Positions 16,101 to 54,989 of a stretch of DNA of 64,000 nt are shown here, piece after piece. The DNA comes from Mobula hypostoma (taxonomy: Eukaryota), in the NCBI RefSeq assembly GCF_963921235.1, contig NC_086108.1, forward strand, positions 8,432,001 through 8,496,000, written 5' to 3'. The position numbers were made by a program, and so were the translations under genes. Each line of letters opens with the position of its first letter. The first letter of the stretch is position 1. The notes under the pieces are model-generated. The model had not been told where the DNA came from. It made no database searches and worked only from the letters and a program-made list of their open reading frames with translations.

Positions 16101-17204
16101 TTAGATTGATCTTCGTGTAGGGTAAAAGGTCAGGACAACACTGTGGACTGAAGGGCCTAGACTGTGCTGTAATGATTTGTGTTCTATGATAGTTCTTTGT
16201 TCCAGAACGGGGGACGGATTGGTGGACCAGAACATCAAGAAAATACCGAAAATGAAAACAAAAGTTTGAGGAGACAAGATTGAAGGTCAGAGCAGACAGA
16301 ATATTTACTGGTGATCTTCCCTCAGTAAGTGGAGCCCAAACCTGCTTTTTGATATTGGATATCACCGTCGGAATGCATCTGAACATTTCCAATCATCGTC
16401 ACAAGGGGTTGATGCAAGCTGTGTCTCCAAGAGGACATGGCCACCGTCATCAGGAGGAAACGTTGGAGACGGATCGGGCACGTGATGAGAAGAGAGGTCA
16501 GCTCCATCTTCAAGGCAGCACCTCACTGGACCTCAGAAGGGCGAAGGAAACACGGGAAACCAAAGACAACTCAGCACCGCACCGGAGAGGCAGAAATGAG
16601 GACCCTGAACCTCAGCTGACACACAATAGAGAAGACAGCCAAGGACAGACAGAGATCGAGGACCTTCATTAGTGACCTAAATTGATGCAAGCAGGCTTTT
16701 TCCCCTCAGCTTGGCCGAGATTGGAACCAGAGGCCAGATTTGGTGGAACGTGGGGAGGATCTTCTCCACTGGTGTGAGAGTGGAACAAGTTGTCGGACGG
16801 AGGATGGGGTGGATGCGGGTCCAGTTGCAATGTTGAAGAGCTGTTTGGATTGATTGGAGGGGTATGGTCCTGGTGTGGGTGGATGGGATAGGCAGAATAA
16901 CAATTCTAGATGGCTGAAGGGCCTGTTTCTGTGCTGTAGTGCTCCACGACTCTAATTACCTCCTTGCAGGAAATTAGTGCCACTTTGAGCCCCTGTTGAC
17001 GAGGTGGCGGCGACGACTGGGGGGTGTGGGGAGAGAGGATTCAGACTGAGTTTTCATGTGAGGAGGCTGCTCGGATAGCAACAACGATACAAACATGTTG
17101 TGCCATTACCACTGAGGTGAGGAAAACTGTGCAACCTCTCAGCCAGCGTCAACTGGCCTTCGGATTCGAGATGGGTCTGCATCCCAACATAATCCCAATA
17201 TGTA

Positions 17205-17830
17205 TCCAATCTGCACCCGACACACTCCCTATACATGTATCCGGTCTACACCCGACACATTCCCTATACATGTATCCGGTCTGTACCCGACACATTCCCT
17301 ATACATATATCCAATCTGCACCCGACACATTCCCTATACATGTATCCGGTCTGCACCCGACATATTCCCTATACATGTATCCGGTCTGCACCCCGACACA
17401 TTCCCTATACATGTATCCGGTCTGCACCCCGACACATTCCCTATACATGTATCCAGTCTGCACCCGACACATTCCCTATACATGTATCCGGTCTGCACCC
17501 CGACACATTCCCTATACATGTATCCAGTCTGCACCCCGACACATTCCCTATACATGTATCCAGTCTGCACCCCGACACATTCCCTATACATGTATCCGGT
17601 CTGCACCGCGACACATTCCCTATACATGTATCCGGTCTGCACCCCGACACATTCCCTATACATGTATCCGGTCTGTACCCGACACATTCCCTATACATTT
17701 ATCCGGTCTGCACCCCAACAGATTCCCTATACATGTATCCAGTCTGCACCCCAACACATTCCCGATACATGCATCCGGTCTGCACCCGACACATTCCCTA
17801 TACATGTTTCCGTTCTGCACCCCGACATCT
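17205..17830. repeat. Minisatellite, 35-36 bp unit (cacccgacacattccctatacatgtatccggtctg), about 17 copies
   Basis: Direct tandem repetition without spacers; the mirror copy at about 6775-6935 has only about 4-5 units. Confidence 0.92.
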
Positions 17831-17854
17831 CCAACTGAGAAATATAAACAGAAA

Positions 17855-19590
17855 CAACAGGAATTCTGCAGATGCTGGAAATTCAAGCAACATACATCAA
17901 AGTTGCTGGTGAACGCAGCAGGCCAAGCAGCATCTATAGGAAGAGGCGCAGTCGACGTTTCAGGCCGAGACCCTTCGTCAGGACTAACTGAAGGAAGAGT
18001 GAGTAAGGGATTTGAAAGCTGGAGGGGGAGGGGGAGATGCAAAATGATAGGAGAAGACAGGAGGGGGAAGGATAGAGCCGAGAGCTGGACAGATGATAGG
18101 CAAAAGGGGATATGAGAGGATCATGGGACAGGAGGTCCGGGAAGAAAGACAGGGGGGGGGTGACCCAGAGGATGGGCAAGAGGTATATTCAGAGGGACAG
18201 AGGGAGAAAAAGGAGAGTGAGAGAAAGAATGTGTGCATAAAAATGAGTAACAGATGGGGTACGAGGGGGAGGTGGGGCCTTAGCGGAAGTTAGAGAAGTC
18301 GATGTTCATGCCATCAGGTTGGAGGCTACCCAGACGGAATATAAGGTGTTGTTCCTCCAACCTGAGTGTGGCTTCATCTTTACAGTACAGGAGGCCGTGG
18401 ATAGACATGTCAGAATGGGAATGGGATGTGGAATTAAAATGTGTGGCCACTGGGAGATCCTGCTTTCTCTGGCGGACAGAGCGTAGATGTTCAGCAAAGC
18501 GGTCTCCCAGTCTGCGTCGGGTCTCACCAATAGATAAAAGGCCACAATGGGAGCACCGGACGCAGTATATCACTCCAGTCGACTCACAGGTGAAGTGATG
18601 CCTCACCTGGAAGGACTGTTTGGGGCCCTGAATGGTGGTAAGGGAGGAAGTGTAAGGGCATGTGTAGCACTTGTTCCGCTTACACGGATAAGTGCCAGGA
18701 GGTAGATCAGTGGGGAGGGATGGGGGGGACGAATGGACAAGGGAGTTGTGTAGGGAGCGATCCCTGCGGAAAGCGGGGGGGGAGGGAAAGATGTGCTTAG
18801 TGGTGGGATCCCGTTGGAGGTGGCGGAAGTTACGGAGAATAATATGTTGGACCCGGAGGCTGGTGGGGTGGTAGGTGAGGACCAGGGGAACCCTATTCCT
18901 AGTGGGGTGGTGGGAGGATGGAGTGAGAGCAGATGTACGTGAAATGGGGGAGATGCGTTTAAGAGCAGAGTTGATAGTGGAGGAAGGGAAGCCCCTTTCT
19001 TTAAAAAATGAAGACATCTCCCTCGTCCTAGAATGAAAAGCCTCATCCTGAGAGCAGATGCGGCGGAGACGGAGGAATTGCGAGAAGGGGATGGCGTTTT
19101 TGCAAGAGACAGGGTGAGAAGAGGAATAGTCCAGATAGCTGTGAGAGTCAGTAGGCTTATAGTAGACATCAGTGGATAAGCTGTCTCCAGAGACAGAGAC
19201 AGAAAGATCTAGAAAGGGGAGGGAGGTGTCGGAAATGGACCAGGTAAACTTGAGGGCAGGGTGAAAGTTGGAGGCAAAGTTAATAAAGTCGACGAGTTCT
19301 GCATGCGTGCAGGAAACAGCGCCAATGCAGTCGTCGATGTAGCGAAGGAAAAGTGGGGGACAGATACCAGAATATGCACGGAACATAGATTGTTCCACAA
19401 ACCCAACAAAAAGGCAGGCATAGCTAGGACCCATACGGGTGCCCATAGCTACACCTTTAGTTTGGAGGAAATGGGAGGAGCAAAAGGAGAAATTATTAAG
19501 AGTAAGGACTAATTCCGCTCGACGGAGCAGAGTGGTGGTGGAGGGGAACTGATTAGGTCTGGAATCCAAAAAGAAGCGTAGAGCTTTGAT
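17855..19590 (-). mobile_element. Penelope-like retroelement, 5'-truncated (RT C-terminal half plus GIY-YIG endonuclease, open frame 18280-19590)
   Basis: GVAMGTRMGPSYA...LRYIDD RT motifs, VYYKPTDSH, and GIY-YIG-type VIYCVRC...IGETRRRLGDRFAEH...HFN; 3' repeat carries a hammerhead motif. Confidence 0.92.
17950..17985 (-). ncRNA. Minimal type I hammerhead ribozyme motif in the Penelope 3' repeat
   Basis: Minus strand AGUC-CUGACGA-AGG(gucucgg)CCU-GAAAC-GUC-GACU: conserved core boxes, stem I AGUC/GACU, palindromic ACGU stem III. Confidence 0.7.
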
Positions 19591-19793
19591 ATATATAAAC
19601 AGATATATAAACAGATGTAGATTTGAAGGTTTGACAAGTTGCAATAATGGATTTTTCCGAGATGGTGTAAAAACAATATTGATGGATCAGATCCCATGAC
19701 AATCCAAGTGACATTTGTAAGGAACGTGTAAAAATAGTCACATGAGCCACTGGGCATCTAGTCACACCTACTGCCCCAGGAGGTGCAGTAGAA

Positions 19794-25716: not shown

Positions 25717-25871
25717 TTACGCTGTGTTGATGAGGGTCTCTTTGTCCTCCCTGGAGCGCGTGCGATGGTAGGACACCACGTGGTCAGCCTTTGCCAGCTT
25801 GACGATGAAGTAGACGACGCCTCCGAGGAGTACCAGGATGCAGACGGCCAGGAGAACCACCATTGAGATCG
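25717..25871 (-). CDS. Terminal coding exon: transmembrane helix and short cytoplasmic tail (AISMVVLLAVCILVLLGGVVYFIVKLAKADHVVSYHRTRSREDKETLINTA*)
   Basis: Acceptor ccctcctctcttgccgcag in phase 1; hydrophobic run of about 23 residues followed by a basic residue; TAA at 25719-25717; tail resembles the HAI-2 DDKEQLV motif. Confidence 0.88.
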
Positions 25872-27494
25872 CTGCGGCAAGAGAGGAGGGATAAAGTGAG
25901 ATCTCACCTTAAACCATCAGGAGAGAAACATTTCCCTTTGAAATCCACCCCATTAATGATCTATCAGACCCCGAAGTGTCAATAATTCCGCCTCTCTGGT
26001 TGTGAACATTTCTGACAGGGCCAGCATCATCACCTGGACCACAATGGCTTGCTGGGCTAGTTCACAGAACATTACAGCACAGTACAGGCCCTTCGGCCTG
26101 CATTATTGTACTGACCTTTTAACATACTCCAAGATCATTCTGACTCTTCCCAAATACAGAGCCCTCCATCCCGTTGCCTTCCTAAGAGTCTCTTAAATGT
26201 CCCTAATGTATCTGCCTCTACCACCACCCCGGCAAGGTATCCCACGCATAACCACTGTGTTTAAAAAAAACTTAGCCCTCCATATTTCCCTTCAATCACC
26301 TTAATAGTAGGTCTTGCTGAATTAGCCGTTTCCGCCCTGGGAAAAGGGCATTGGCTGTTCCCTCGATCTTTGCTTCTTATCTTATACACCTCTGTCAAGG
26401 CACCTCTCAACCTGCAAAGTCCTGGCCTGCTTGACCTACCCTCATCAGATATTCATTTGCAGGCTGAGTCCGTGGTGAGGAAGGCAAATGCAATGTTAGC
26501 ATTCATTTCAAGAGGACTAGAATAGAAAGGTAAGGATGTAATGTTGAGGCTTTATAAAGCACTGGGGAGTACTGGTGTATTGAGAGCAGTTTTGGCCCCC
26601 AGGATGTGTTGACACTGGAGAGGGTTCAAAGGAGGTTCATGAAAATGATTCCAGAATTGAATGGCTTGTCATATGGGGAGTGTTTGATGGCCCTGGGCCT
26701 GTACTCACTGGAATTCAGAAGAATGAGCGGTGACCTTATTGAAACCTATCAAATGGTGAAAGGCCTCAATTAGAGTGGATGTGAAGAGGATGTTTCCTAT
26801 GATGGGAGTGTCTAAGACCAGAGGACACAGCCTCAGAAACAGAGGGGCATCCTTTTAGAATGGAGATGAGGAGTAATTTCTTTAACCAGAGAGCGGTGAA
26901 TCTGTGGAGGCCAAGTCTTTATGTATATTTAAGAAAGAGGTTGATAGATTCTTGATTGGTCAGGGCATGAAGTTATTCAGGGAGGAGACAGGAGACTGGG
27001 CCTGCGAGAGAGAAAATGGATCAGCCCTGATGAAATGGTGCAGCAGACTCAATGGGCCAAATCCTGCTCATGTCTCATGCTCTCTAATCCAGGCAGCATC
27101 CTGGTAAATCTCCTCTGCACCCTCTCTAAAGCTTCCACATCCTCCCTATGATGATGTGACCAGAACGGAACACAAGACTTCAAGTGCGTCTAACCAGGGT
27201 TTTATAGAGCTGCAACATTACCTCATGGCTCGTGTACTCAATCCCCTGACTATTGAAGGCCAACACACCCTATCAACTTGAAGAGCAAATTTGAGGGATC
27301 TGTGGGTAAGGGGAGTCACAGCCATTCCCTTTCACCCAGGGGTATTAGGAGATTGGATCTCACTGGCTGAAAGGGTTAACACTACCATTATGAAGTTCAC
27401 TAAAAAATTGGGAAGATTCAGTGACCATCATGGGTACTTGACAGGCCAAATGGTCTCCTGAAATAACTCGGAAAATGTGTAGCTCAGGTGTTTG

Positions 27495-28945: not shown

Positions 28946-29020
28946 CTGACACGTGATGACGGAAGCCGGAGTGGTGCTGCCCGTCGTGCTTGCCCCCGTC
29001 TTCGCTCTTTTCCCAGTTAC
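28946..29020 (-). CDS. Candidate juxtamembrane linker exon (GNWEKSEDGGKHDGQHHSGFRHHVS)
   Basis: 75 nt, phase 1-1; good donor CAG|GTAAGC; GC/CpG-rich non-repeat patch. The acceptor (ttttgaatgatag) is weak, so the 5' boundary is uncertain. Confidence 0.5.
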
Positions 29021-36109: not shown

Positions 36110-38627
36110 GGCTCAGTCCCCACCCAAACACACTCACCCCCACCCACCCGCTCCTTTACCAACGTCATTCCAACAATCTCAGCAAATCACGTTCATCTGC
36201 TTGTCCCAGGAAGCCAAGCCCCCACCAGCAACCTCCCCGCCCGCGCCTGCACCCACACTAATATCGTACCTTTATCCTCAACGGATAGCTTCCTTTCCGG
36301 TGGTTCGGAGACAAGTGCTGCGGAACGAAAAAAAAGATGTGAAGTTACACGCACAAAGTGCTGGGGGGGGGGACTCAGCAGGTCAGGCAGCATCTATAGA
36401 AATGAATAAACAGTCAACGTTTTGGGCCAAGACCCTTCTTCAGGACTGAGAAGGAAGAGGGGAGACTCCAGAGTAAACAGGTGGGGAAGGGGGGAGGGGA
36501 AGGAGGACGGCTGGAAGGTGACGAGTGAAGCCAGGTTGGTAGGAGAGGTGAAGGGCTGGAGAGGAAGGAATCTGATGGGAGAGGAGAGTGGACAATAGGA
36601 GAAAGGGAAGGGAGAAGGGACCCAGGGGGAGGTGATAGGCAGGTGAGAAGAGGTAAGAGGTCGGAGTGAGGAATAGAGGAAGGAATTGGTTCACCGAAAG
36701 TAGAGATCAATATTTATGTCATCAGGTTGGAGGCTACCCAGACGGAATATAAAGTGTTGCTCTTCCACCCTGAGCGCGGCCTCTTCTTGGCACAAGAGGA
36801 GGCCACGGGCTGACACATTAGAATGGGAATGGGAATGGGAATGAAAAAGATTTGGCCACCAGGAAGTCAAGCTTTTGGTGAATGGAGCAGAGGTGCTTGA
36901 TGACGCGGTCCCCCAATTTACCTGTATCTATTTTCAGGGACAATGGAGAACACCTGGAGCTAAGTGTTCTGTGGAATTTCACCCACCGATCAGTGTGTGA
37001 CACCGAACCATGCCGAGACAGGTCAGAGGAGCTTTCACACAGCCATCCATAGAGGAAACTGAAGTTTCAGAGGGAACGCCAGAGGGTGAGACCCAGGGCA
37101 AAGAGAGACACAAGAGGCTGAAATGGAGGTGGTAACAGGACGGGCAAGGACATGAAGGGGAGTTGGAAGGTGAGAGTAGGTCAAGTGAGCTAGGGCTTTT
37201 CTCTCTGGAGTGAAGGTGGTTGAGCGGTGACTCGATAGAGGTGTACACAATGATACAAAGCATCAATCATGTGGACAGCCAGAGACTTTTTCCCCAGAAC
37301 AGAAATGGTCAATATGAGGGGGCATAAACTTAAGGATGGAGCATCGGACCAGAAAGCCCTACAAAGGACAGTGAGACTGATCGAGAAGATCATACGGGTC
37401 ACCCTGCCCTCCATCAGGGACATTTATCAGGAGCACTGCACACGCAGGGCTCTTAGTATTATCAAGGATCCCACCCACCCATCCAGCATCCTCTTTGACT
37501 TTCTACCATCAGGCAGGAGACTCCGATGCACAAAAACAAGAATGGACAGGATGGGAAACAGATTCTTCCCGCAGGCCGTTAGGCTTCTGAACTCCCTGCC
37601 ACATCGCATTCGAAGTGTCTCTGGTTAATCTGTTCCGTACCCTACGATATTGTTTCATTTATTCCCTTTACTTTGTGTATTTATGCATAATCGATCATTA
37701 GATTTTATCCTTACTTTCCTAAGTTACTGTGTGTTATGTGTACTACTGTGCTTTACACCCTGGTCTGGAGAAACATCGTCTCATTTGATGGTATGCATGT
37801 ATATAGTTAAATGACAATAAAGTTGACCTCATTCCTCTGAGATGCAACACTGAGCGTCATAGGAAGTCATTCCTGCCTGTGGCCATCAAACTTTACAACT
37901 CCTCCCTTGGAGAGTCAGACACCCTGAGCCAATAGGCTGGTCCTGGATTTATTTCATAATTTACAGGCATAATTTACATATTACTGTTTAACTATTTATG
38001 GTTTTATTACTATTTATTATTTATGGTGCAACTGTAACAAAAACCAATTTCCCCCTGGGATCAATAAAGTATGACTATGACTAAGTAATTTTTTTTGTTT
38101 TACAGGGGTGGCAGATACATTAGGGACATTTAAGAGACTTTTAGATAGGCCCATGGATGATAGAAAAATGGAGGGCTATGTGGGAGGGTTACGTTGGTGT
38201 GGTCATCAACATAAAAGACTGATGTAAAAATCCCAAGCAGTGGACACTTAACATTGTCCTGCTCATCTGAGCCCCCAGGTGCAGTCAATAGTGTGTAACT
38301 GTCACGAACTGGGAAAAGGCAGAGAGAAATGTTTTGTTAAATCAGTTTGTTTAGAACCTCAGCCACTCCTGTAATACACAGCTCATGAGTTGTTCATCCT
38401 CCACCCCCACCCCCCTGTTCACACCTGTCCTGGGGGGGGGGGGAGGTGGCGTGCCTGATTCTGATTGTCGAAAGCAGCTTCCGTTGTGATTGGTCAGTTT
38501 AGAAGCTGCAACTGCTTTCCCCATTCGATAACCACCCGTGTACGGTTTCAAATACCCTGGGTACATAAAATAGCACATGGAAGGGGCTTGCTCTCTTCTT
38601 GCTTTGTTTAAGGCAGGAATGCACACG
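36110..38627. repeat. Intragenic duplicated block; direct copy of about 42612-44866
   Basis: Identical ORF translations at 36818/43309, 36979/43470 and 37427/43918 (offset about 6.49 kb); includes the linker exon copy. Confidence 0.9.
38252..38308 (-). pseudogene. Duplicated copy of the 57-nt linker exon with a dead splice donor (pseudo-exon)
   Basis: Exon body matches 44497-44553, but the donor reads G|TTAAGT instead of G|GTAAGT (plus strand A at 38251 versus C at 44496). Confidence 0.75.
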
Positions 38628-39379
38628 ACGATCAGGAATGTCTGGTCGAATTTTTACAGTTTGTAAATAAATGATTAATATACCTATTCAAAGCCAGTGC
38701 AGTTCTTCTCTCCCTTGCCAGGCCCACCAAACCTTATTCCACATTACAATACCTCCTCCCTGCTTGCCTCCCTGTCACCTCATTTGATCCCCCCCCCCGT
38801 TAACTCCATTTGCTGCCCCCCACCCCTCCACGGCCACCCCATTCTACTTTCTCTTCTTTCCTGGCCTGGGTGGGTTAGATTTCCTGGGATCAGATTTCAG
38901 GTCAGTACTGGTTTAACCAGAATGTCACACATGCTGAACAAGACCACAGGATTTTAAAGAAACAGACCCAACCCAAACAAAGCCAAGAATTTGTTCATTA
39001 CGAAAGCAACAGAACACCGAAGTAAGGAATCAGTGCTTCAATTCTACAGGCCACTGGTGAGACCACATCTCGTGTGCTGTGTATAGTCCTGCCCTTATTT
39101 TCAAATGGCAGAGCAGACCTGATGGCCTGAATGGCCCGCCAGCTCCTACGTCTTGTGGTCTCAATTCAGAATGTTAGCACAGCTCTGGCGGCGGAGTGGG
39201 GATACCTCTCTAACAAAGGAGGTGTAAGGCACTCCTTCCCTCCACTAGCCTACACGTCACCCTTGGGCAAAGTGTAGCACCTATTAGCCCCCCCAATCCC
39301 CCCAGATCATGAGGTGTGGGTCTTCAGGCTTCTGCAACTCAGAGGGAACAACGGTCAGCAGTTTAAATGGCTCGGCATG

Positions 39380-40398
39380 GACTAGATGGGCTGAATGGCC
39401 TGATTCTGCTCCTATGTCTGATGGCCTTTTTCTGTGTGTGTGAACGTATACACCTGCGATGCTGCTGTACCTGCACCTCTGGGTGGTGGGGTGGAGATAC
39501 GTCTCTACCAAAGGAGCTGTGAGGCGCTCCTGTCCTCCACTAGCCAGCGGGTCACCCTTGGGCAAGGTGTAGCACCTGCTTAGCCCCCCCACCACCCCGA
39601 TCAGGGTCACATGAAGCCACGGGATCAGGTGGTGGATGGTCCTATGAGCAGCCGGTGCAGATCACAAGTCCTGGTTATGTGACCACTGACACCAGGCAGA
39701 CAATCTCTGAAGAGTATTGATAAAGGCTGGGGTCACCCGTCTTGTAAAGACACTGCCCAGAAAAAGGCAATGGCAAACCACTTCTGTAGAAAAATTTGCC
39801 AAGAGCAATTGTTGCCAAAGAGCATGATTGCCCATGTCATATGACTCGGCACATAATAATGATGTCATAGACATGGCACATAATGATGATGACGGTGTAC
39901 ACCTCACTGTTCTTGGACACGTGACGATGATCAGAATCAGGTTTAATATCACCAACATGTGTTGTGAAATTTGTTGTTTTGCAGTTTGCAAAACATAAAA
40001 TATTACAAATTACAATAATATATATTAAAAAATGAAAAAAGAGAGAACAAAAGTAGTGGGGTAGTGTTCAGGGGTGTACTAACCTGGCACCCCCCAGCAA
40101 GCGGTCAAGCAATTCCCCTTGGATTCGAAGTTGTTCTTGTTCCCTCCACAGCCACCGTAGATGAAGGGCAGGCAGTCTTGCACCTCGGGGTCGTAGTACC
40201 ATCGCGGGAAAGCAGCACGGCAATGCCCCGTCATGGCCGGATCATAGCAGTACGCTGCGGGCACAGTCAGAAGGCTCAGTCCCCACCCAAACACACTCGG
40301 CCCCACCCACCCGCTCCTTTACCAACGTCATTCCAACAATCTCAGCAAATCACATTCATCTGCTCGTCCCAGGAAGCCAAGCCCCCACCAGCAACCTG
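39380..40398. repeat. Intragenic duplicated block containing Kunitz C; direct copy of about 41719-42716 (Kunitz B)
   Basis: Near-identical intron sequence at offset about 2.34 kb (ORFs 39662 and 42000). Confidence 0.9.
40084..40254 (-). CDS. Kunitz domain exon C ([57 protein letters not shown]), P1=Arg
   Basis: 171 nt, phase 1-1; acceptor ttctgactgtgcccgcag, donor G|GTTAGT; all six cysteines present. Confidence 0.88.
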
Positions 40399-42422
40399 CT
40401 GAGACCACATCTCGTGTGCTGTGTATAGCACTGCCCTTATTTTCAAATGGCAGAGCAGATCTGATGGCCTGAATGGCCTGCCAGCTCCTACATCTTGTGG
40501 TCTCATTTCAGAATGTTAGCACAGCTCTGCCGGCGGGGTGAGGATACCTCTCTACCAAAGGAGGTGTAAGGCACTCCTTCCCTCCACTAGCCTACACGTC
40601 ACCCTTGGGCAAAGTGTAGCACCTATTAGCCCCCCTAATCCCCCCAGATCATGTGCAACTCAGAGAGGGAACAACGGTCGGCAGTTTAAATGGCTGGCAT
40701 GGTCTAGATGGGCTGAAGGGCCTGATCCTGTGCTCTGCTCCTCAGTGACTCTAACCCCTAAAACCACCCCTACTAACCTATATAAAAAAGACCACAACAT
40801 TGACGGACTCCATAGTCCAGCGCCATCCTAACCGGGAGATGTCCCACACACGGGCTTTGGGAGTTTGGGAAGGAGCGGGGATGGGATTGAAATACGAGAT
40901 CCCAAGAAGTCTTGACAAGATGGATGGGGGAAGAGGACATTCCCTCTTGTGGGAGAATCTAGAACTGGGGTCAATGTGTAAATGGAATCATGCATTTACA
41001 TATCATTATTTAACTATTTATGGTTCTATTACTATTTATTATTTATGGTGCAACTGTAATGAAAACCAATTTCCCCCGGGATCAATAAAGTATGACTATG
41101 ACTATGCACTTTGAACAGAAGAGGTAATGTTGCCTTTCCCCCGGAGGGCTGAATCTTTGGAATTCTCTTCAACAAACAATGCTGCAGATAGAGTATTTGA
41201 ATATTTCTGAGGCAGAACTGGATGAATAAGTGAGAGGTTGCCGAGGCAAAAACGTGGAGCTGTGGTTGCAACTAGATCAGACCAGATCTCACATTACATG
41301 ACAGGAAACCAAGAACCGAACACTGCATACTAATTTGCATATATTTTAATAACAAGAATGAAGAGGTTTCACGTATTTTGAATAATTTACGTACAACTCA
41401 GGCCCAGATAGAGTAGCCATTGAGAGGGTTTTTCCTACAATGGGGTGGGGGAGGGGAGAGACTTGGACCAGAGGACACAGCCTCAAAATAGAGTGATGTC
41501 CCTTCAGAACAGAGATGAGGAGGAATTTCGTTAGCTAAAGGGAGGTGAATCTGTGGAATTCATTGCCACAGGCGGCTGTGGAGGCTAAGTCATTGGGTCT
41601 ATTTAAAGCGGAGGTTGATAGGCTCTTGATTAGTCAGGGTGTCAGAGGTTACGGGGAGAAGGCAGGAGGATGGGGTTGAGAGGGATAATAAATCAGCCAT
41701 GACAGAATGGTGGGACAGACTAGATGGGCTGAATGGCCTGATTCTGCTCCTATGTCTGATGGCCTTTTTCTGTGTGTGTGAACGTATACACCTGCGATGC
41801 TGCTGTACCTGTACCTCTGGGTGGTGGGGTGGAGATACGTCTCTACCAAAGGAGCTGTGAGGCGCTCCTGTTCTCCACTAGCCAGCGGGTCACCCTTGGG
41901 CAAGGTGTAGCACCTGCTTAGCCCCCCCACCACCCCGATCAGGGTCACATGAAGCCACGGGATCAGGTGGTGGATGGTCCTATGAGCAGCTGGTGCAGAT
42001 CACAAGTCCTGGTTATGTGACCACTGACACCAGGCAGACAATCTCTGAAGAGTATTGATAAAGGCTGGGGTCACCCGTCTTGTAAAGACACTGCCCAGAA
42101 AAAGGCAATGGCAAACCACTTCTGTAGAAAAATTTGCCAAGAGCAATTGTTGCCAAAGAGCATGATTGCCCATGTCATATGACTCGGCACATAATAATGA
42201 TGTCATAGACATGGCACATAATGATGATGACGGTGTACACCTCACTGTTCTTGGACACGTGACGATGATCAGAATCAGGTTTAATATCACCGACATGTGT
42301 TGTGAAATTTGTTGTTTTGCGGTTTGCAAAACATAAAATATTACAAATTACAATAATATATATTAAAAAATGAAAAAAAGAGAGAACAAAAGTAGAGTGG
42401 TAGTGTTCAGGGGTGTACTAAC

Positions 42423-42593
42423 CTATCTCCCACGAGCAAGCGACCACGCAATCCTCCTCCGATTCGAAGTTGTTCTTGTTCCCTCCACAGCCACCATAGG
42501 TGAAGGTCATGCAGGCCCCCCGCGCGGGTTCGTAGTACCATCGCTGGAAAGCAGCGCGGCATCTCCCCGTCATGGCAGAAGCATAGCAGTACG
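42423..42593 (-). CDS. Kunitz domain exon B ([57 protein letters not shown]), P1=Arg
   Basis: 171 nt, phase 1-1; acceptor ttctgactgtgcctacag, donor G|GTTAGT; all six cysteines present. Confidence 0.9.
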
Positions 42594-44496
42594 CTGTAGG
42601 CACAGTCAGAAGGCTCAGTCCCCACCCACCCGCTCCTTTATCAACGTCATTCCAACAATCTCAGCAAATCACATTCATCTGCTCGTCCCAGGAAGCCAAG
42701 CCGCCACCAGCAACCTCCCCGCCCACGCCTGCACCCACACTAATATCGTACCTTTATTCTCCGCAACGGATAGGTCTCTTGGCTGTGGTTCGGAAAGGAG
42801 TGCTGCGGAACGAAAAAAAAGATGTGAAGTTACACGCACAAAGTGCTGGAGCGTGGGGGGGGGACTCAGCAGGTCAGGCAGCATCTATAGAAATGAATAA
42901 ACAGTCAACGTTTTGGGCCAAGACCCTTCTTCAGGACTAAGAAGGAAGAGGGGAGACTCCAGAGTAAACAGGTGGGGAAGGGGGGAGGGGAAGGAGGACG
43001 GCTGGAAGGTGACGAGTGAAGCCAGGTTGGTAGGAGAGGTGAAGGGCTGGAGAGGAAGGAATCTGATGGGAGAGGAGAGTGGACAATAGGAGAAAGGGAA
43101 GGGAGAAGGGACCCAGGGGGAGGTGATAGGCAGGTGAGAAGAGGTAAGAGGTCGGAGTGAGGAATAGAGGAAGGAATTGGTTCACCGAAAGTAGAGATCA
43201 ATATTTATGTCATCAGGTTGGAGGCTACCCAGACGGAATATAAAGTGTTGCTCTTCCACCCTGAGCGCGGCCTCTTCTTGGCACAAGAGGAGGCCACGGG
43301 CTGACACATTAGAATGGGAATGGGAATGGGAATGAAAAAGATTTGGCCACCAGGAAGTCAAGCTTTTGGTGAATGGAGCAGAGGTGCTTGATGACGCGGT
43401 CCCCCAATTTACCTGTATCTATTTTCAGGGACAATGGAGAACACCTGGAGCTAAGTGTTCTGTGGAATTTCACCCACCGATCAGTGTGTGACACCGAACC
43501 ATGCCGAGACAGGTCAGAGGAGCTTTCACACAGCCATCCATAGAGGAAACTGAAGTTTCAGAGGGAACGCCAGAGGGTGAGACCCAGGGCAAAGAGAGAC
43601 ACAAGAGGCTGAAATGGAGGTGGTAACAGGACGGGCAAGGACATGAAGGGGAGTTGGAAGGTGAGAGTAGGTCAAGTGAGCTAGGGCTTTTCTCTCTGGA
43701 GTGAAGGTGGTTGAGCGGTGACTCGATAGAGGTGTACACAATGATACAAAGCATCAATCATGTGGACAGCCAGAGACTTTTTCCCCAGAACAGAAATGGT
43801 CAATATGAGGGGGCATAAACTTAAGGATGGAGCATCGGACCAGAAAGCCCTACAAAGGACAGTGAGACTGATCGAGAAGATCATACGGGTCACCCTGCCC
43901 TCCATCGGGGACATTTATCAGGAGCACTGCACACGCAGGGCTCTTAGTATTATCAAGGATCCCACCCACCCATCCAGCATCCTCTTTGACTTTCTACCAT
44001 CAGGCAGGAGACTCCGATGCACAAAAACAAGAATGGACAGGATGGGAAACAGATTCTTCCCGCAGGCCGTTAGGCTTCTGAACTCCCTGCCACATCGCAT
44101 TCGAAGTGTCTCTGGTTAATCTGTTCCGTACCCTACGATATTGTTTCATTTATTCCCTTTACTTTGTGTATTTATGCATAATCGATCATTAGATTTTATC
44201 CTTACTTTCCTAAGTTACTGTGTGTTATGTGTACTACTGTGCTTTACACCCTGGTCTGGAGAAACATCGTCTCATTTGATGGTATGCATGTATATAGTTA
44301 AATGACAATAAAGTTGATCTGAAGTACAAGTAATTTTTTTTGTTTTACAGGGGTGGCAGATACATTAGGGACATTTAAGAGACTTTTAGATAGGCCCATG
44401 GATGATAGAAAAATGGAGGGCTATGTGGGAGGGTTACGTTGGTGTGGTCATCAACATAAAAGACTGATGTAAAAATCCCAAGCAGTGGACACTTAC

Positions 44497-44553
44497 CATT
44501 GTCCTGCTCATCTGAGCCCCCAGGTGCAGTCAATAGTGTGTAACTGTCACGAA
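44497..44553 (-). CDS. Short linker exon after LDLa (VRDSYTLLTAPGGSDEQDN)
   Basis: 57 nt, phase 1-1; strong acceptor gtttctctctgccttttcccag and donor G|GTAAGT; open frame. Confidence 0.75.
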
Positions 44554-45286
44554 CTGGGAAAAGGCAGAGAGAAACGTCTTGTTAAATCAGTTTGTTTAGA
44601 ACCTCAGCCACTCCTGTAATACACAGCTCATGAGTTGTTCATCCTCCACCCCCACCCCCCTGTTCACACCTGTCCTGTGGGGGGAGGTGGCGTGCCTGAT
44701 TCTGATTGTCGAAAGCAGCTTCCGTTGTGATTGGTCAGTTTAGAAGCTGCAGCTATTTCCCCATTGGATAACCACCCGTGTACGGTTTCAGATACCCTGG
44801 GTACATAAAATAGCACATGGAAGGGGCTTGCTCTCTTCTTGCTTTGTTTAAGGCAAGAATGCACACAATGATTGTGAAATTTGTTGTTTTGTGGTTTGCA
44901 AAACATAAAATACTACAAATTACAATTGTACACATTAAAAAATGAAAAAAAAAGAGAACAAAAGCAGTGGGGAAGTGTTCATGGGCTCATTGTCCATTCA
45001 GAAATCTGATGGCAGAGGGGAAGAAGCTGAGCGTGTCTTCAGGCTCCTGTTCCTCCTCTGGGATGGCAGCAATGAGAAGAGGGCGTGTCCTGGGTGGTGG
45101 AGGCCCTTAATGACAGATGCCACCATCTTGTGGTATCATCTTTTGAAGATGTCCTCGATGTCTAAGTGAACTTATCCAGAGATTGAGGGTAAACCAGGAG
45201 GAGAGGAGGGGCTTCCTGTCCACACACACTCCAGAACAACTCAATGGGTGCTATGACACAGGCAACTCTGCACCCCCATCACTTAC

Positions 45287-45412
45287 CCGCATCACAGTAC
45301 TGGAGGTCTGATTTATCAAGGCAATGTACCTCCCCATCACAAATCTGGTCAGAGGGGACACAGCAGCCGTCACGGCAGTGGAATTCATCAGCCGAACACT
45401 GCCTCGAACATT
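45287..45412 (-). CDS. LDL-receptor class A domain exon (ECSRQCSADEFHCRDGCCVPSDQICDGEVHCLDKSDLQYCDA)
   Basis: 126 nt, phase 1-1; acceptor ctgtctgttgcag, donor G|GTAAGT; cysteine spacing with the GCC motif resembles the HAI-1 LDLa domain. Confidence 0.9.
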
Positions 45413-45482
45413 CTGCAACAGACAGGATGGACAATTGTCTCAACGTTCCTACAATCATTCTCAGGCACAGGATAAAGACAGA

Positions 45483-46015
45483 CACTCTGTGGCCACTCTG
45501 TCAGGTATACCTGCTCATTAATGCAAATATCTAACCAGCCAATCATGTAGCAGCAACTCAATGCTTAGAAACATGCAGACATGGTCAAGAGGTTCAGCTG
45601 TTGTTCAGACCAAACATCAGAATGAGGAAGAAATGTGATTAAGTGGCTTTGACTGTGGAATGATTGTTAGTTCCTGGTGGTTTGAGTATCTCAGAAACCT
45701 CCTGGGATTTTTATGCGCAACAGTGTCTAGAGTTTACAGAGAATGGTGTGAAAAAACAAAAATCATTCCAGTGAGTGGCAGTTCTGCGGGTGGAAATGCC
45801 TTGTTAATTAGAGAGGCCAGAGGAAAACGGCCAGACAGGTTCCAGCTAACGGGAAGGAAACAGCAATTCAAATACACATGCATTACAACCGTGGCATGCA
45901 GAAGAGCATCTCTGAACCTTGAGGTAGACGAGCTACAGCAGTAAAAGACCACAACATACACTCAGTGGCCACAGTATTAGGTGTAAGAGGAACGTCATAA
46001 GGTGGTCACTGAATG
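45483..46015. mobile_element. Tc1-derived non-autonomous element, decayed
   Basis: cactc(a/t)gtggccac...aggt terminal-type motif and a Tc1-like helix-turn-helix remnant (LLGFLCATVSRVYREWCE). Confidence 0.55.
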
Positions 46016-48199: not shown

Positions 48200-51100
48200 T
48201 AACAGCTGTAAAGATGTGGTCTACAAACTACAACGGGAGAGAAAATGCATGCCAAAAGGGCAATGTTACAATAGTCATGGGGGAATTCAATATGCAGGTG
48301 GCTTGGGAAAATCAGGTCGGTGCTGGACTCCAAGAGGAGGAGTTTCTGGAATGCCAATGAGATGGCTTTTTAGAGCAGCTCATGGTTCAGCCCACTAGGG
48401 GAGCACCAATTGTGGATCGGGTGCTTTGCAATGATCCGGAATTGATTAGAGAGCTTATGGTAAAATAACCATTAGGGGACAAGTGATCATAGTAGGATCG
48501 AATTCACTCTGAAATTTGAGGAGTAGCTAAGGTCAGATGTATCAGTATTACAGTGGAATAAAGGGAATTACAGAGGCATGAGAGAAGAGTTGGCCAGAAT
48601 TGATTGGAAAAGAACACTGGTAGGGATGATGGCAGAGCAGCAGTGGCTGGAATTTCTGGAAACAATTCAGAAGGCACAAGGTATCTACATCCTAAATAGG
48701 GATTCCTTATTCTAAAGGAAAGATGACAAGATTGTTAACAAGAGAAGCCAAAGAGAGGGCATATAATAGAGCAAAAATTAGTGGGAAGTTAGAGGATTGG
48801 GAAGTTTTTAAAAACCAACAGAAGACAACTAAAAAAGTTATTAAAAAGGTAAAGATGGAAAACAAAAGCAAGCTACCCAATAATATTAAAGAACATACCA
48901 AAAGTTTCTTCAGATACATAAAGTGCACGGAGAGGCAAGAGTGTATATCAGACGCCTGGAAAACAACGCTGGAGAGGTAGTAATGGGGAAAAAGGAAATG
49001 GTGGATAAACTGAATAAGTATTTTGCATCAATCTTCACTGTGGAAGACACTAGCAGTATGGCAGAAGTTCCAGGTGTCGGGGGCATGAAGTGTGTGAAGT
49101 TACCATAACTACAGAGAAAGATCTTGGGAAACTGAAAGGTCTGAAGCCTGGACCAGATGGTGTTAACCCTAGTTTTCAGAAAGCAATGGGAGGCGTTAGT
49201 AATGATGTTTCAAGAATCACTAGATCCTGAAATGGTTTTTGAAGACTGGAAAATTGTGAATGTCACTCCACTCTTCAAGAAGGGAGAAAGGTAGAAGAAA
49301 GGAAACTATAGGCCAGTTAGTCTGACCTCAGTTGCCGATGTTGTAGTTGATAATTAAGGATGAGGTCTCAGGGTACTTAGAGGTCCATGATTAAAAAGGC
49401 CACAGTCAGCATGGTTTCCTCAAGGGAAAATCTTAGCTGACAAATCTGTTGGAATTCTTTGAAGAAATGACAAGCAGGAGAATTGGTTGGTGTTGTGTAC
49501 TTAGATTTTCAGAAGGCCTTTGACAAGTTGCCACACATGAGGCTGCTTAACTAGGTAAGAGCCCACTGTGTTACAGGAAAGACTCTAGCATTTATAAAGC
49601 AGTGACTGATCAGCAGGAGGCAAAGAGTGGGAATAAAAGCAGCCTTTTCTGGTTGGCTACCGGTGTCTAGTGGTGGTCCACAGGGGTCTGTATTGAGACA
49701 ATTCTTTTCAGGTTAGATTAGATTAGATTAGATTAGATTCAACTTTATTGTCATTGTGCAGAGTACAGATACAAAGCCAAAGAAATGCAGTTAGCGTCTG
49801 ACCAGAAACGCAAATAGTGTTATTTACAAAATAACTGCCAATAAAAAGTGCTACAGTACACAAATATAAAAGTGCTGAGACAGTACAATATGGGTGCAAT
49901 ACTACTTAGTGCTGCGATGTGAGGTTCAACAGGGTCACAGCCTCAGGGAAGAAGCTCTTCCTGTGCCTGCTGGTGCGGGAGCGGAGGCTCCTGTAGCGCC
50001 TACCGGATGTGAGGAGAGTAAAAAGTCCATGGTTAGGGTGAGATGCATCCTTGATAATGCTTTTCGCCCTGCCCAGGCAGCGTTTATGGTAGATGTTCTC
50101 AATGGTGGGCAATTGGGTGCCGATAATCCGCTGGGCAGTTTTCACCACACGCTGGAGTGCTTTGCGGTCCGATACGGGACAATTGCCATACCACACTGAG
50201 ATGCAGTTGGTGAGTATGCTCTCAATGGTACAGCGGTAAAAGTCCATCAGTATCCTGGGACAGAGGTGAGCTTTCTTGACGCTCCGCAGGAAATAAAGAC
50301 GCTGTTGTGCCTTTTTGATCAGGATGGAGGAGTTCAGAGACCAGGTGAGATCCTTGGAAATGTGGACACCAAGGAATTTGAAGCTTGATACACGCTCCAC
50401 TACAGTTCCGTTGATGTAGATGGGGACGTGAGCTTGACTCCTGGCATGCCTGAAGTCCACAATGATCTCCTTGGTCTTCTGGGTGTTAAGGGCCAGATTG
50501 TTGTCAACACACCACGTGGCCAGGTGTTGGACCTCGTCCCTGTAGGCCATCTCGTCATCTCCTCTGATCAGACCAGCCACCGTGGTGTCATCTGCGAACT
50601 TGGTTATGGAGTTAGAACCATGTACAGGAACGCAGTCATAGGTGAAAAGGGAGTACAGAAGAGGGCTCAGCACACAGCCTTGAGGCACGCCGGTGTTCAG
50701 GGTGAGAGTGGAGGAGGAGAGGTTGTCTAACTTAATGATTGGGGTCTGTTAGTCAGAAAGTCCAAGGTCCAATTGCAGAGGGATGAGCTGATACCAAGCT
50801 GGCGAAGTCCGGCGATCGGCTTGGAGGGGATCACAGTATTGAATGCTGAACTGAAGTCAATGAACAGCATTCTGACGTAAGAGTTGGGGCTGTCCAGGTG
50901 GGTCAGGGCAGAGTGAAGTGCCATGGGGATGGCGTCCTCTGTTGACCTGTTGGTGCGATAGGCAAATTGATGGGGGTCCAGGGTAGTGAGCAGACAGGAT
51001 TTCAGATGTGATAGAACCAGTCTCTCAAAGCACTTTGCAATGATGGGGGTGAGTGCAACTGGATGGAAATCATTCAGGTCCGTGGCAGTGGAATGCTTCA

Positions 51101-52935
51101 GCACTGGCACGATGGTGGCGATCTTGAAGATTGTGGGGACAACTGCCTGGGCCAGGGACAGATTAATAATGTCCGTGAAGACCCCGGCCAACTGCCCTGC
51201 ACAGACTCTGGGCACATGGCCAGGTATTCCATCCGGACCAGCTGCCTTCCGTACATTCACCCTGCTCAGGGTGGCGCGAACATTGGAGGTGGAAAGTGAC
51301 AGAGGCAGTTCACCAGGTGGGAGATCCGCTCCGAGGGTGACCTCCTTGTTCTCTCGGTCAAAGTGAGCGTGGAAGTAATTGAGCTCATCAGGGAGGGAAG
51401 CAGAGCTGGAAGGGGGCACGATACTAGGTGGTTTAAGTCTGTAATGACCTGTATGCCATGCCACATGTTTTTATGTCATATGTTGGATGATGAATGATGG
51501 CTTTGTTGCAAAGTTTGCAGACAATATGAAGATAGGTGAAGGGACAGGTGGTTTTGAGGAAGTTGAGAGGCTACAGAAGGACTTAAGACAGATCAGGCAA
51601 GGAAATGACAGATGGAATACAGTGTATGGTCATGCACTTTGGTCGAAGAAATGAAAGGGTTGACTATTTTCTAAATGGAGAGAAAATATATTAAAAAAAT
51701 AAGATGCAAAGGGTCTTGAGATTCCAAAGGAGGTTCAGGAAACTGATTCTAGGATTGAAAGACTCCTCATATGAGGACCATTTGATGGCTCTGGGCCTGT
51801 ACTCACTGGAATTCAGAAGAATGAGGTGGTGGTGGGGGAACATCATTGAAACCTATAAAGGTCTCAATACAGTAGATGTGGAGACGATGTTTCCTATGGT
51901 GGGCCAGAAGACATAACCTCAGAATAAAGGGATGTCTTTTTAGAGTGGACATGAGGAGGAATTTGGTAAATGGATTTCAGTAAGGCCTTTGATAAGGTTC
52001 CCCATGCAAAGCTTATTCGAAAAGTAAGGGGGCATGGATTCCAATGAGACCTTGCTTTGTGGATCCAGAATTGGCTTGATCACAGAAGGGAAAATGTGGT
52101 TGTGTAAGTTTATATTCTGCGTGGAGGACGGTGACCAGTGGTACTTTGCGAGGACCTGTTCTGGGACCCCTCCTCTTTGTGATTTTTATAAATGACCTGG
52201 ATGAGGAAGTCGAAGGGTGGGTTAGTAAGTTTGCTGATGACACAAAAGTTGGGGGTGTTGTGGACAGTCTGGTTGTCAGAGGTTACAGTGGGACATCGAT
52301 AGGATGCAGAACTGGGCCGAAGAGTGACAGATGGAGTTTAACCCAGGAAAGTGTGAGGTGGTTCATTTTGATAGGTCAAATTTGAAGACAGAATAGAATA
52401 TTAGTGATAAGACTCTTGGCAGTGTGGAGGATCAGCGAGATCTTGGGGTCCGTGTCCATCGTGCACTCAAAGCTGCTGCACCAGGATGCCCGTGTTGTTA
52501 ATAAGGCGTATGGTGTGTTGGTCTTCATCAACCGTGGGATTGAATTCAAGAGCTGTGAGGTAATGTTACAGCCATATAAGACTATATAAGCTAAATAGAG
52601 ACTAGGCAGTTTCTAGAGTAGGTTACATGGTTGGCACAACATTGTGGGCCGCAGGGCCTGTAATGTGCTGTAGATTTCTATGATTCTATGAATTTCTTTA
52701 GCCAGAGGTGATAAAACTGTGGAATTCGTTGCCGCAGGAGGCTGTGGAGGCAAAGTCATTGGGTGTATTTAAGGCAGAAGTTGACAGATTCTTGATTGGT
52801 TTGAGGACGAAGGATACCAGGAGATGGCAGGAGACTGGGGCTGAGAGTGAAATGGATCAGCCATGACGAAATGGTGGAGCAGACTCGTTGGGCCAAATGG
52901 CCTAATTCTGCTCCTGTATCTAATGGTCTTATATG
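48200..52935 (+). mobile_element. Decayed CR1 LINE ORF2 interrupted by nested insertions
   Basis: Endonuclease/RT remnants (VTIVMGEFN, LNKYFASIFT, YLDFQKAFDK, AKFADN) continue on both sides of the Rex1 insert. Confidence 0.75.
49713..51466 (-). mobile_element. Rex1/Babar LINE, 5'-truncated, RT with one frameshift near 50730 and a (TCTAA)n tail
   Basis: KAAGPDGIPG...LFIDFSSAFNT and PQGCVLSPLLYSLFT...KFADDT motifs; ttagattagattag tail at 49713-49738. Confidence 0.9.
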
Positions 52936-54818: not shown

Positions 54819-54989
54819 CTGTGACTTTGCTGCAGGCCTTCTGGCAATCCGCTTCACTCTCATAGTTGTTCGGGTTGGGCAGGCAGCCTCCGTAAATGAA
54901 CTCCTGGCACACCTGTTCCGTGGTGTTGAAATACCACCGAGGAAACCAGGCACGGCACGGGCCCGCCTTCGAGGGACTTGTGCAATCCA
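54819..54989 (-). CDS. Kunitz domain exon A (DCTSPSKAGPCRAWFPRWYFNTTEQVCQEFIYGGCLPNPNNYESEADCQKACSKVT), P1=Arg
   Basis: 171 nt, phase 1-1; acceptor ttatttttcag, donor G|GTTTGT; six Kunitz cysteines and FxYGGC motif. Confidence 0.92.

Follow-up and report, generated by a model that had tools for sequence, protein, structure and literature searches.

A Kunitz inhibitor gene with repeated exons

The stretch analysed here, hereafter the window, comprises 64,000 nucleotides of the devil ray Mobula hypostoma (contig NC_086108.1, positions 8,432,001 to 8,496,000 of the forward strand), and our subject is a set of four Kunitz exons (A to D) in it, three of which (B, C and D) are repeats of one another. 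To judge from its sequence, the locus is the 3′ half of a membrane-anchored Kunitz inhibitor gene of the HAI/SPINT type on the minus strand. The translations of exons A, B and C recur letter for letter in P0182 (at residues 127, 280 and 337, respectively), the NCBI protein 'kunitz-type protease inhibitor 2 isoform X1 [Mobula hypostoma]', while isoform X2 (P0038) is without B and has C as an exact match at residue 280. The repeated exons and introns are given below in gene order; joints and loose ends are those of contigs from run X5, which is flagged 'RNA?' in the run listing and contains spliced contigs.

44497..44553, minus strand: linker exon L1 (57 nt), opening the duplicated three-exon block; X5 joints 42802/44497 and 44553/45287; AG/GT splice sites
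42860..44246, minus strand: near-identical intron tract, B-unit copy, part of the L1-to-S1 intron; 2/1387 mismatches against 36369-37755
42752..42802, minus strand: small exon S1 (51 nt), spliced to B or straight to C; X5 joint 42802/44497, loose ends 42752 and 40256; AG/GT
42594..42716, minus strand: proximal upstream intron copy, B unit; 4/123 mismatches and one 20-bp gap against 40255-40397
42423..42593, minus strand: Kunitz exon B, a cassette; Pfam 69 bits; P0182 residue 280; absent from P0038; X5 joint 40254/42423
41718..42422, minus strand: downstream intron repeat, B copy; 7/704 mismatches against 39380-40083
40255..40397, minus strand: proximal upstream intron copy, C unit; aligned to the B-unit copy
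40084..40254, minus strand: Kunitz exon C, in both annotated isoforms; Pfam 71.9 bits; P0182 residue 337, P0038 residue 280
39380..40083, minus strand: downstream intron repeat, C copy; aligned to the B copy
38252..38308, minus strand: L1′, a duplicate of exon L1, apparently dead; 0/57 mismatches; donor ttaagt against gtaagt; in neither P0182 nor P0038
36369..37755, minus strand: near-identical intron tract, D-unit copy; aligned to the B-unit tract
36270..36317, minus strand: small exon S2 (48 nt), spliced after exon C; X5 loose end; AG/GT; its peptide follows domain C in P0182
35934..36104, minus strand: Kunitz exon D, of the ancestral last-Kunitz type and probably a decaying pseudo-exon; Pfam 63.7 bits, from profile position 5 only

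Exons B and C are both 171 nt long, of phase 1-1 and bounded by AG/GT splice sites. The three-exon block L1-S-Kunitz is present twice, at 44872-42413 (L1, S1, B) and 38632-35924 (L1′, S2, D), while the C unit (40397-39380) repeats the Kunitz exon once more, together with 143 bp of the intron upstream and 705 bp of the intron downstream of it. The X5 contigs contain the junctions LDLa-L1, L1-S1, B-C and C-S2, the last as a loose end at 40084 that continues into the first 30 nt of S2, as well as a junction from S1 directly to C. B is therefore a cassette exon, and C is part of both forms.

All four Kunitz domains score above the curated PF00014 cut-off of 21 bits (A 69.9, B 69.0, C 71.9 and D 63.7). 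The six-cysteine spacing C-8-C-15-C-7-C-12-C-3-C is kept by A, B and C; it fails in D, which has five cysteines left. Exon D retains an open frame, with Cys1 changed to Arg and Cys2 displaced by one residue, and its acceptor pyrimidine tract is shortened by a 13-bp deletion. It was absent from all 56 proteins that it matched, the best match being 82% (in the stingray Hypanus). The lost and the shifted cysteine, the acceptor deletion and the absence of D from these proteins together mark it as an apparently unused and probably decaying pseudo-exon.

Divergence of the exon and intron copies

Between B and C, 32 of the 171 nt differ (18.7%). An earlier note, made from the letters alone, had counted about as many by hand, and its tally of codons is likewise confirmed: 24 differ, 21 with a change of amino acid and three by synonymous changes only. 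Both exons keep the six cysteines, P1 Arg and the motif [10 protein letters not shown], also as noted there. It had put the adjoining intron copies at 680 bp and around 1% divergence; the divergence stands (7/704 and one 1-nt gap, 1.0%), whereas the length is 705 bp. The contrast between exon and intron is real and highly significant, both against the downstream intron (p=7.4e-18) and against the proximal upstream intron (p=4.3e-5), by segment-wise Fisher tests; selection was assessed by Nei-Gojobori counts with bootstrap. The third copy shows a similar contrast (B-D 33/171, C-D 32/171). Across the block shared by the B and D units, the values are as follows.

Upstream of L1: 10/319 (3.1%)
L1 exon: 0/57 (0%)
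L1-to-S intron: 4/1688 (0.24%), including a 1387-bp stretch with 2 mismatches (0.14%)
S exon (S1 and S2): 10/48 and a 3-nt gap (20.8%)
S-to-Kunitz intron: 9/154 (5.8%)
Kunitz exon: 33/171 (19.3%)

For the S-to-Kunitz region, affine-gap values are used, the pairwise MAFFT alignment being inflated (intron 10.9%, S exon 14/50). The islands of divergence match exon borders within about 25 nt. Between B and C the switch is sharp: scarcely any difference is seen in the upstream intron and the 12 bases that open the exon, eight fall in its last 20 bases, and the next difference in the intron lies 27 nt past the donor. A 35-nt identical run in the middle of the two exons is longer than random placement predicts (p=0.008); as the run codes for the conserved motif [10 protein letters not shown], we do not take it as proof of conversion within the exon. 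The introns consist largely of old interspersed repeats, which are 78-88% like thousands of genomic copies and 99-100% like each other; the B copy of the downstream intron, for example, contains an approximately 410-bp old interspersed repeat that is at most 88% like other genomic copies.

Nonsynonymous (dN) and synonymous (dS) divergence between the Kunitz exons, by the Nei-Gojobori method (NG86), was estimated as follows.

B-C: dN 0.228, dS 0.170, dN/dS 1.34
B-D: dN 0.232, dS 0.194, dN/dS 1.19
C-D: dN 0.231, dS 0.162, dN/dS 1.43

The ratios, which the earlier note had proposed as a check for positive selection, are indistinguishable from 1 (bootstrap confidence intervals from 0.56 to 5.4, one of them 0.58-4.83; Fisher p=0.81; above 1 in 67-79% of bootstraps), and dN is not significantly greater than dS. 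Positive selection is unproven, and the fast evolution of the exons at the protein level (dN/dS about 1.2-1.4) could reflect either positive selection or weak constraint. Synonymous sites have diverged as well: B and C differ by 5.5 synonymous changes at 36.2 sites, so that dS is about 15 times the divergence of the intron (0.010), at which about 0.4 changes would be expected. Given this high dS, pure positive selection on young copies cannot explain the contrast. Fourfold sites point the same way (2/15 against 8/705 in the intron, p=0.017, the intron being finally counted as 7/704), although with counts this small (2/15, 2/15 and 1/15 in the three pairs) the test is not a firm one.

Ages of the exons and introns and the cause of the contrast

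Isoform X1 of Mobula birostris (P0010) likewise has the order S1-B-C-S2. A maximum-likelihood tree of elasmobranch Kunitz domains, 29 in all, joins window B to domain 2 of M. birostris (support 100/98) and window C to its domain 3 (97/94), and the stems of B and C (0.25 and 0.21) exceed the tips (0.025-0.16). Coding islands thus cluster by orthology and not by species, and 11 residues tell B from C in both Mobula species. Since each has an M. birostris orthologue, B and C appear to have been distinct already when M. hypostoma and M. birostris parted. D falls with the one Kunitz domain that stingrays have after LDLa (82/74) and is, by this grouping, probably the ancestral exon. The similar divergence of all three Kunitz pairs and of S1/S2, 19-21%, fits a shared older origin.

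The introns were dated against publicly available contigs from a related ray (run X7, coded as organism B), aligned to window positions 40060-45500 at 90% likeness; two changes in its exon L1 fit the M. birostris protein. Among the pieces listed, four contain intron only and differ from the window at 11/321, 14/407, 11/435 and 4/179 positions, or 40/1342 (3.0%), two of them overlapping by 24 nt. Pieces bearing exons B and C (12/249, 19/289) or L1 and LDLa (8/281, 9/429) were left out of this figure; adding the L1 and LDLa pieces gives 57/2052 (2.8%), and 31-mer shares of 0.36 and 0.79 imply about 2.5%. The paralogous introns are closer than this, both in the downstream intron of B and C (7/704, p=0.0046) and in the B/D tract (2/1387, p=1e-10). 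Intron copies that predate the split should differ by at least the interspecies value; at 1.0% and 0.14% they fall below it, and so would have been overwritten after speciation. At 43270-43859, the window's two copies have 0-1 differences, while X7 differs from both at 15/614 positions (2.4%), the other letter being carried by all of the X7 depth at the sites listed. Contigs of the duplicated tract have about twice the depth of single-copy contigs both in run X1 (25.3 and 24.1 against 11.4-16.1) and in X7 (11.2, 12.7 and 9.4 against 5.3-8.9). The X1 contigs also cover exons B and C with 0 differences. Run X13 left both exons uncovered, which has no bearing on whether its organism possesses them. 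At site 41872, only one paralogue letter is seen even in X1, which we ascribe to bubble popping in the contigs, and such sites were not used. This greater likeness of introns within a species than between species reads as the signature of concerted evolution.

At the protein level, the two Mobula proteins P0038 and P0033 differ at 35 of 427 aligned residues, which is about the neutral expectation at 3% nucleotide divergence. Beyond B and C, the gene as a whole evolves at an approximately neutral rate, and changes outside the Kunitz domains are symmetric between the lineages (8 against 9). Domain C differs between the species at 9 of 57 residues, as against 2 of 57 in domain A. The nine differences in C imply a minimum of 10 nonsynonymous nucleotide changes, compared with 4.05 expected at the intron rate (Poisson p=0.009). 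Polarised by stingrays, six replacements fall on the M. hypostoma lineage and one on the other (p=0.125), or eight against one when B and D are also used (p=0.039), a weak relative-rate test in either form. The M. hypostoma replacements include three gains of acidic residues and, at P3, a change from Arg to His. At three residues M. hypostoma C is the same as B, and at two residues in the region of the 35-nt run, where M. hypostoma C agrees with B, M. birostris C differs; a short conversion from B to C within the exon may have taken place. We regard these as weak signs of adaptive change in the exons.

The earlier note preferred to explain the contrast by exons outrunning their introns. Under this explanation, exon and intron copies would be equally young, with about 1% neutral divergence, and positive selection for new specificities would have driven the exons approximately 17 times faster, as in venom toxins. 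The 21 replacement codons against three synonymous-only ones, the point estimates of dN/dS and the excess in exon C, with its six to eight changes against one on the M. hypostoma lineage, all speak for it, as does an excess of transversions among the B/C differences (19 against 13 transitions, compared with 55 against 126 among the changes listed for X7, p=0.002). It is set back by the M. birostris orthologues, according to which B and C are older than a split that left introns 3.0% apart, while their own introns are 1.0% apart; by the exon dS of 0.17, far above that of the intron; by a ratio that cannot be told from 1; and by the like divergence, 19-21%, of S1 and S2 and of exon D, which is unused. 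Nor do most of the changes lie where new protease targets, which the earlier note suggested, would place them. With residues placed by an offset to BPTI numbering, only 3 of the 21 B/C differences (P3, P4′ and residue 34) fall within the 15 positions of the protease-contact loops, which we take to be residues 11-19 and 34-39; P2, P1 Arg, P1′, P2′ and P3′ are the same in both exons, and the changes are mostly in the hairpin turn, the helix and the tail. The suggestion of new targets is unsupported as worded. Positive selection on young copies is largely refuted by the orthologues, and we see little chance that it was the main cause.

Three further explanations of the contrast were weighed. Hypermutation targeted to exons, whether because they are CpG-rich or through transcription, would raise dN and dS in exons only. 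The exons do have a G+C content of 0.59-0.62 and undepleted CpG (11-15 seen, 14.5-16.4 expected) in contrast to the intron (14 seen, 37.4 expected), and their dS is high, yet L1 and L1′ in the same block differ at 0/57 positions, Kunitz exon A has only two residues different between the species, and 19 of the 32 B/C differences are transversions. CpG hypermutability as the cause of the exon divergence is rejected, as only 2 of the 32 differences are CpG transitions, and we hold exon-targeted mutation in any form to be very improbable. If, instead, the introns were near identical through functional constraint, for instance as regulators of cassette-exon splicing, one would point to B being a cassette exon, and cassette exons are often flanked by conserved intron. 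The tract that is identical between the window's copies nevertheless differs by 2.4% (15/614) from the related ray, like other intron, and the tracts are mostly copies of old interspersed repeats; since they are not conserved between species, the four intron pieces compared showing no more identity than the genomic background, we can give intron constraint next to no credence as the cause. Hardly any weight is due, either, to an assembly artefact, in which mis-joined or assembler-copied units would have placed falsely near-identical introns around real exons. Near-identical repeats of 0.7-1.7 kb are hard to assemble, and the best DNA run may be the assembly's own sample and hence not independent. 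Against this stand the approximately doubled depth of the duplicated tract in X1 and in X7 of the other species, the RNA contigs, which join B-C, C-S2 and S1-C in assembly order, and the NCBI models of two species, which have S1-B-C-S2.

Homogenisation of the introns by gene conversion or unequal exchange, with older exons remaining diverged, is in our judgement probably the main cause of the contrast. The earlier note had named gene conversion of introns but not exons as its alternative, and orthologous exons combined with paralogous introns less diverged than the interspecies 3.0% support it; ancient paralogues with recently converted introns, the arrangement that the note had set against its own preference, are what we found. 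By this account, the ancestral last Kunitz exon D would have been duplicated as a block with the upstream exons L1 and S, and the Kunitz exon then duplicated again, giving the gene order L1-S1-B-C-L1′-S2-D, all before M. hypostoma and M. birostris split. Non-allelic gene conversion, which we infer as the homogenising process, or unequal exchange would then repeatedly have overwritten the introns and the unused L1′, so that the overwritten stretches are now 0.1-1% apart, some 3-6%, compared with 3% between the species. L1′ would thus be a dead exon copy held identical to the live L1, presumably by the same homogenisation as the introns. The Kunitz and S exons would have escaped overwriting and kept their divergence of about 19-21%, at replacement and synonymous sites alike. 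Either selection kept B, C, S1 and S2 distinct, or divergence itself blocked heteroduplex formation; selection is a plausible reason for the escape of these four exons, all of which are spliced.

Several points weigh against this account. The orthology of B and C rests on protein domains of 57 residues, and dS on approximately 36 sites with 5.5 changes, for which the lower range of about 5% allows a duplication barely older than the species split. That the related ray has two collapsed identical copies follows from contig depth, which is one figure per contig, a weak measure and no copy number. Homogenisation of the downstream intron of B and C is deduced only from 1.0% against 3.0%, there being no orthologous piece among the matches listed, and intron stretches at 3.1-5.8% are as diverged as the species or more, so that not all of the intron was recently converted. 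Finally, exon D is unused and still unconverted. Selection can for this reason not be the whole explanation of exon escape, and the blocking of heteroduplex formation by divergence must apply at least to D.

A more ambitious possibility, which we find rather doubtful, is that selection holds the islands apart: B and C would have distinct roles at the position of the second Kunitz domain (KD2), such as tuning the accessibility of the first (KD1) or making secondary contacts, the cassette B would switch between two and three Kunitz domains, and exon C of M. hypostoma would have undergone an adaptive burst. In human HAI-1, the domain at the KD2 position mainly modulates KD1, according to part of a review (PMC12940448). 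If selection does keep the islands apart, the locus points to residues important for a KD2-position function that is poorly understood even in human HAI-1, and would amount to a natural experiment, the segments under selection being delimited by gene conversion with a precision of about 25 nt.

The duplications themselves may be traced to repeats, of which two bracket the C unit.

40396..40730, unstranded: partner repeat, flanking the C unit upstream; like 39054..39408
39054..39408, unstranded: repeat element just downstream (gene orientation) of the C unit; 88.8% over 357 columns to 40396-40730

The homology of B and C ends inside the approximately 350-bp element at 39054-39408. A 114-bp element just downstream of B and C (42300-42413 and 39962-40074) recurs, at 89%, at the upstream edge of the B block (44872-44985). 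Both arrangements suggest that the duplications were made by recombination between dispersed repeats. In the L1′-to-S2 intron, the D unit has an insertion of about 250 bp (37829-38083) where the B unit has 8 bp, and 37972-38091 is 92% like 40994-41112.

Inside this single gene, the homogenisation of introns and the escape of exons stand out with unusual clarity, with three repeat units, borders at splice sites and an internal control in the identical dead L1′. It adds an example to a known pattern and is no proof of runaway exon evolution: greater divergence in exons than in introns does not in itself demonstrate accelerated evolution, the clock of the introns having been reset in this case. 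It also appears to record a remodelling of an HAI-type inhibitor specific to the devil-ray lineage, in which the last Kunitz exon was triplicated, one copy became a cassette exon and the ancestral copy is decaying.

The rest of the gene and comparison with known systems

The remaining exons of the gene in the window flank the repeated region on both sides.

54819..54989, minus strand: Kunitz exon A, first Kunitz domain, before the LDLa module; Pfam 69.9 bits; AG/GT splice sites; P0182 residue 127
45287..45431, minus strand: LDL-receptor class A (LDLa) exon; tblastn to P0010, X5 joint 44553/45287, PF00057 on P0038; 3′ end exact, 5′ end only the extent of the tblastn match
28950..29018, minus strand: next coding exon, juxtamembrane stretch; exact peptide match
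25720..25872, minus strand: transmembrane and cytoplasmic-tail exon; exact peptide match

The encoded domains follow the order MANEC, Kunitz A, LDLa, Kunitz B and C, putative transmembrane segment. Pfam searches of the ray proteins matched MANEC (PF07502, 53 bits, residues 28-111 of both P0038 and P0010), whose exons lie outside the window, Kunitz, and LDLa (PF00057, 29.1 bits, residues 206-241, between two Kunitz domains). By eye, P0182 then has a hydrophobic run of about 23 residues, a putative transmembrane span, and a tail of about 28 residues. A PKD-like domain between MANEC and KD1 was not found: MANEC runs to residue 111 and Kunitz A begins at 127-129, no further Pfam family is matched, and the approximately 15 residues between the two leave no room for it. 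Elsewhere in the window, two adjoining open frames at 49906-51470 (minus strand) match reverse transcriptase (PF00078) and form a LINE-like fragment, which lies in the intron separating the Kunitz A/linker exons from the LDLa exon, and at 17000-19686 both strands carry long open frames (of 371 and 468 codons) with no Pfam match.

A literature search on Mobula and Kunitz found no paper on this locus, and the comparisons that follow are with better-known systems. The solved HAI structures matched are 5h7v, 4isl/4iso and 1yc0, the nearest with several domains being human HAI-1 (5h7v). Like HAI-1 KD1, the ray protein has P1 Arg and P3′ Phe, and the duplicated ray exons occupy the KD2 position. The order of MANEC, Kunitz, LDLRA, Kunitz, putative transmembrane segment and short tail is shared with human HAI-1 (SPINT1)/HAI-2 (SPINT2), as far as part of the review PMC12940448 describes them; for HAI-1 it gives MANEC-Kunitz-LDLa-Kunitz-membrane span. 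Unlike human HAI-1, the ray protein is without room for a PKD-like domain, and unlike human HAI, its KD2-position exon is triplicated, with one copy a cassette, giving isoforms with two or three Kunitz domains. Sharks, skates and sawfish differ from Mobula and the stingrays in a further middle Kunitz domain. Comparison of P0014, P0054, P0059, P0067, P0070 and P0072 with P0062 and P0083 shows three Kunitz domains (K1-LDLa-K2-K3) in sharks, skates, sawfish and electric ray, the middle one being lost in stingrays and the last then re-expanded in Mobula.

The pattern has a likeness to that of rapidly evolving secreted proteins. Trophoblast Kunitz domain proteins reportedly show accelerated evolution with conserved introns, and the same combination is described for snake venom genes in part of PMC2711939. 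As in these families, the ray Kunitz exons are far more diverged than the adjacent non-coding DNA, and replacements predominate. The ray gene is, in contrast, a housekeeping-type membrane inhibitor and not a secreted toxin or a member of a placental family, its dN/dS is not significantly above 1, its reactive loop is conserved from P2 to P3′, and the comparison between species shows young introns rather than uniquely fast exons.

The KRTAP1 repeats, likewise in tandem, also change abruptly from one mode of evolution to another exactly at the coding borders, for which short-tract gene conversion and selection have been proposed, as part of the preprint bioRxiv 10.1101/282418 has it. The direction there is, on the same partial account, the opposite: coding sequence evolves in concert and flanks diverge, whereas in the ray the flanks are concerted and the exons diverge.

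The textbook parallel of the ray locus would be the primate red/green (LW/MW) opsins, in which introns are homogenised by gene conversion and divergence peaks at exon 5 (Teshima and Innan 2008, as reviewed in part of PMC3924837). In both systems, paralogous introns of one species resemble each other more than orthologous introns of different species do, the exons cluster with their orthologues, and a sharp peak of exon divergence stands between introns of low divergence. The ray differs in that its repeats are exons inside one gene and not whole genes, in having three copies, of which one is decaying, unused and still unconverted, and in copies that have no known functional difference. Its divergence, moreover, extends over the whole exon, synonymous sites included, and is not confined, as in the opsins, to a few known functional sites.

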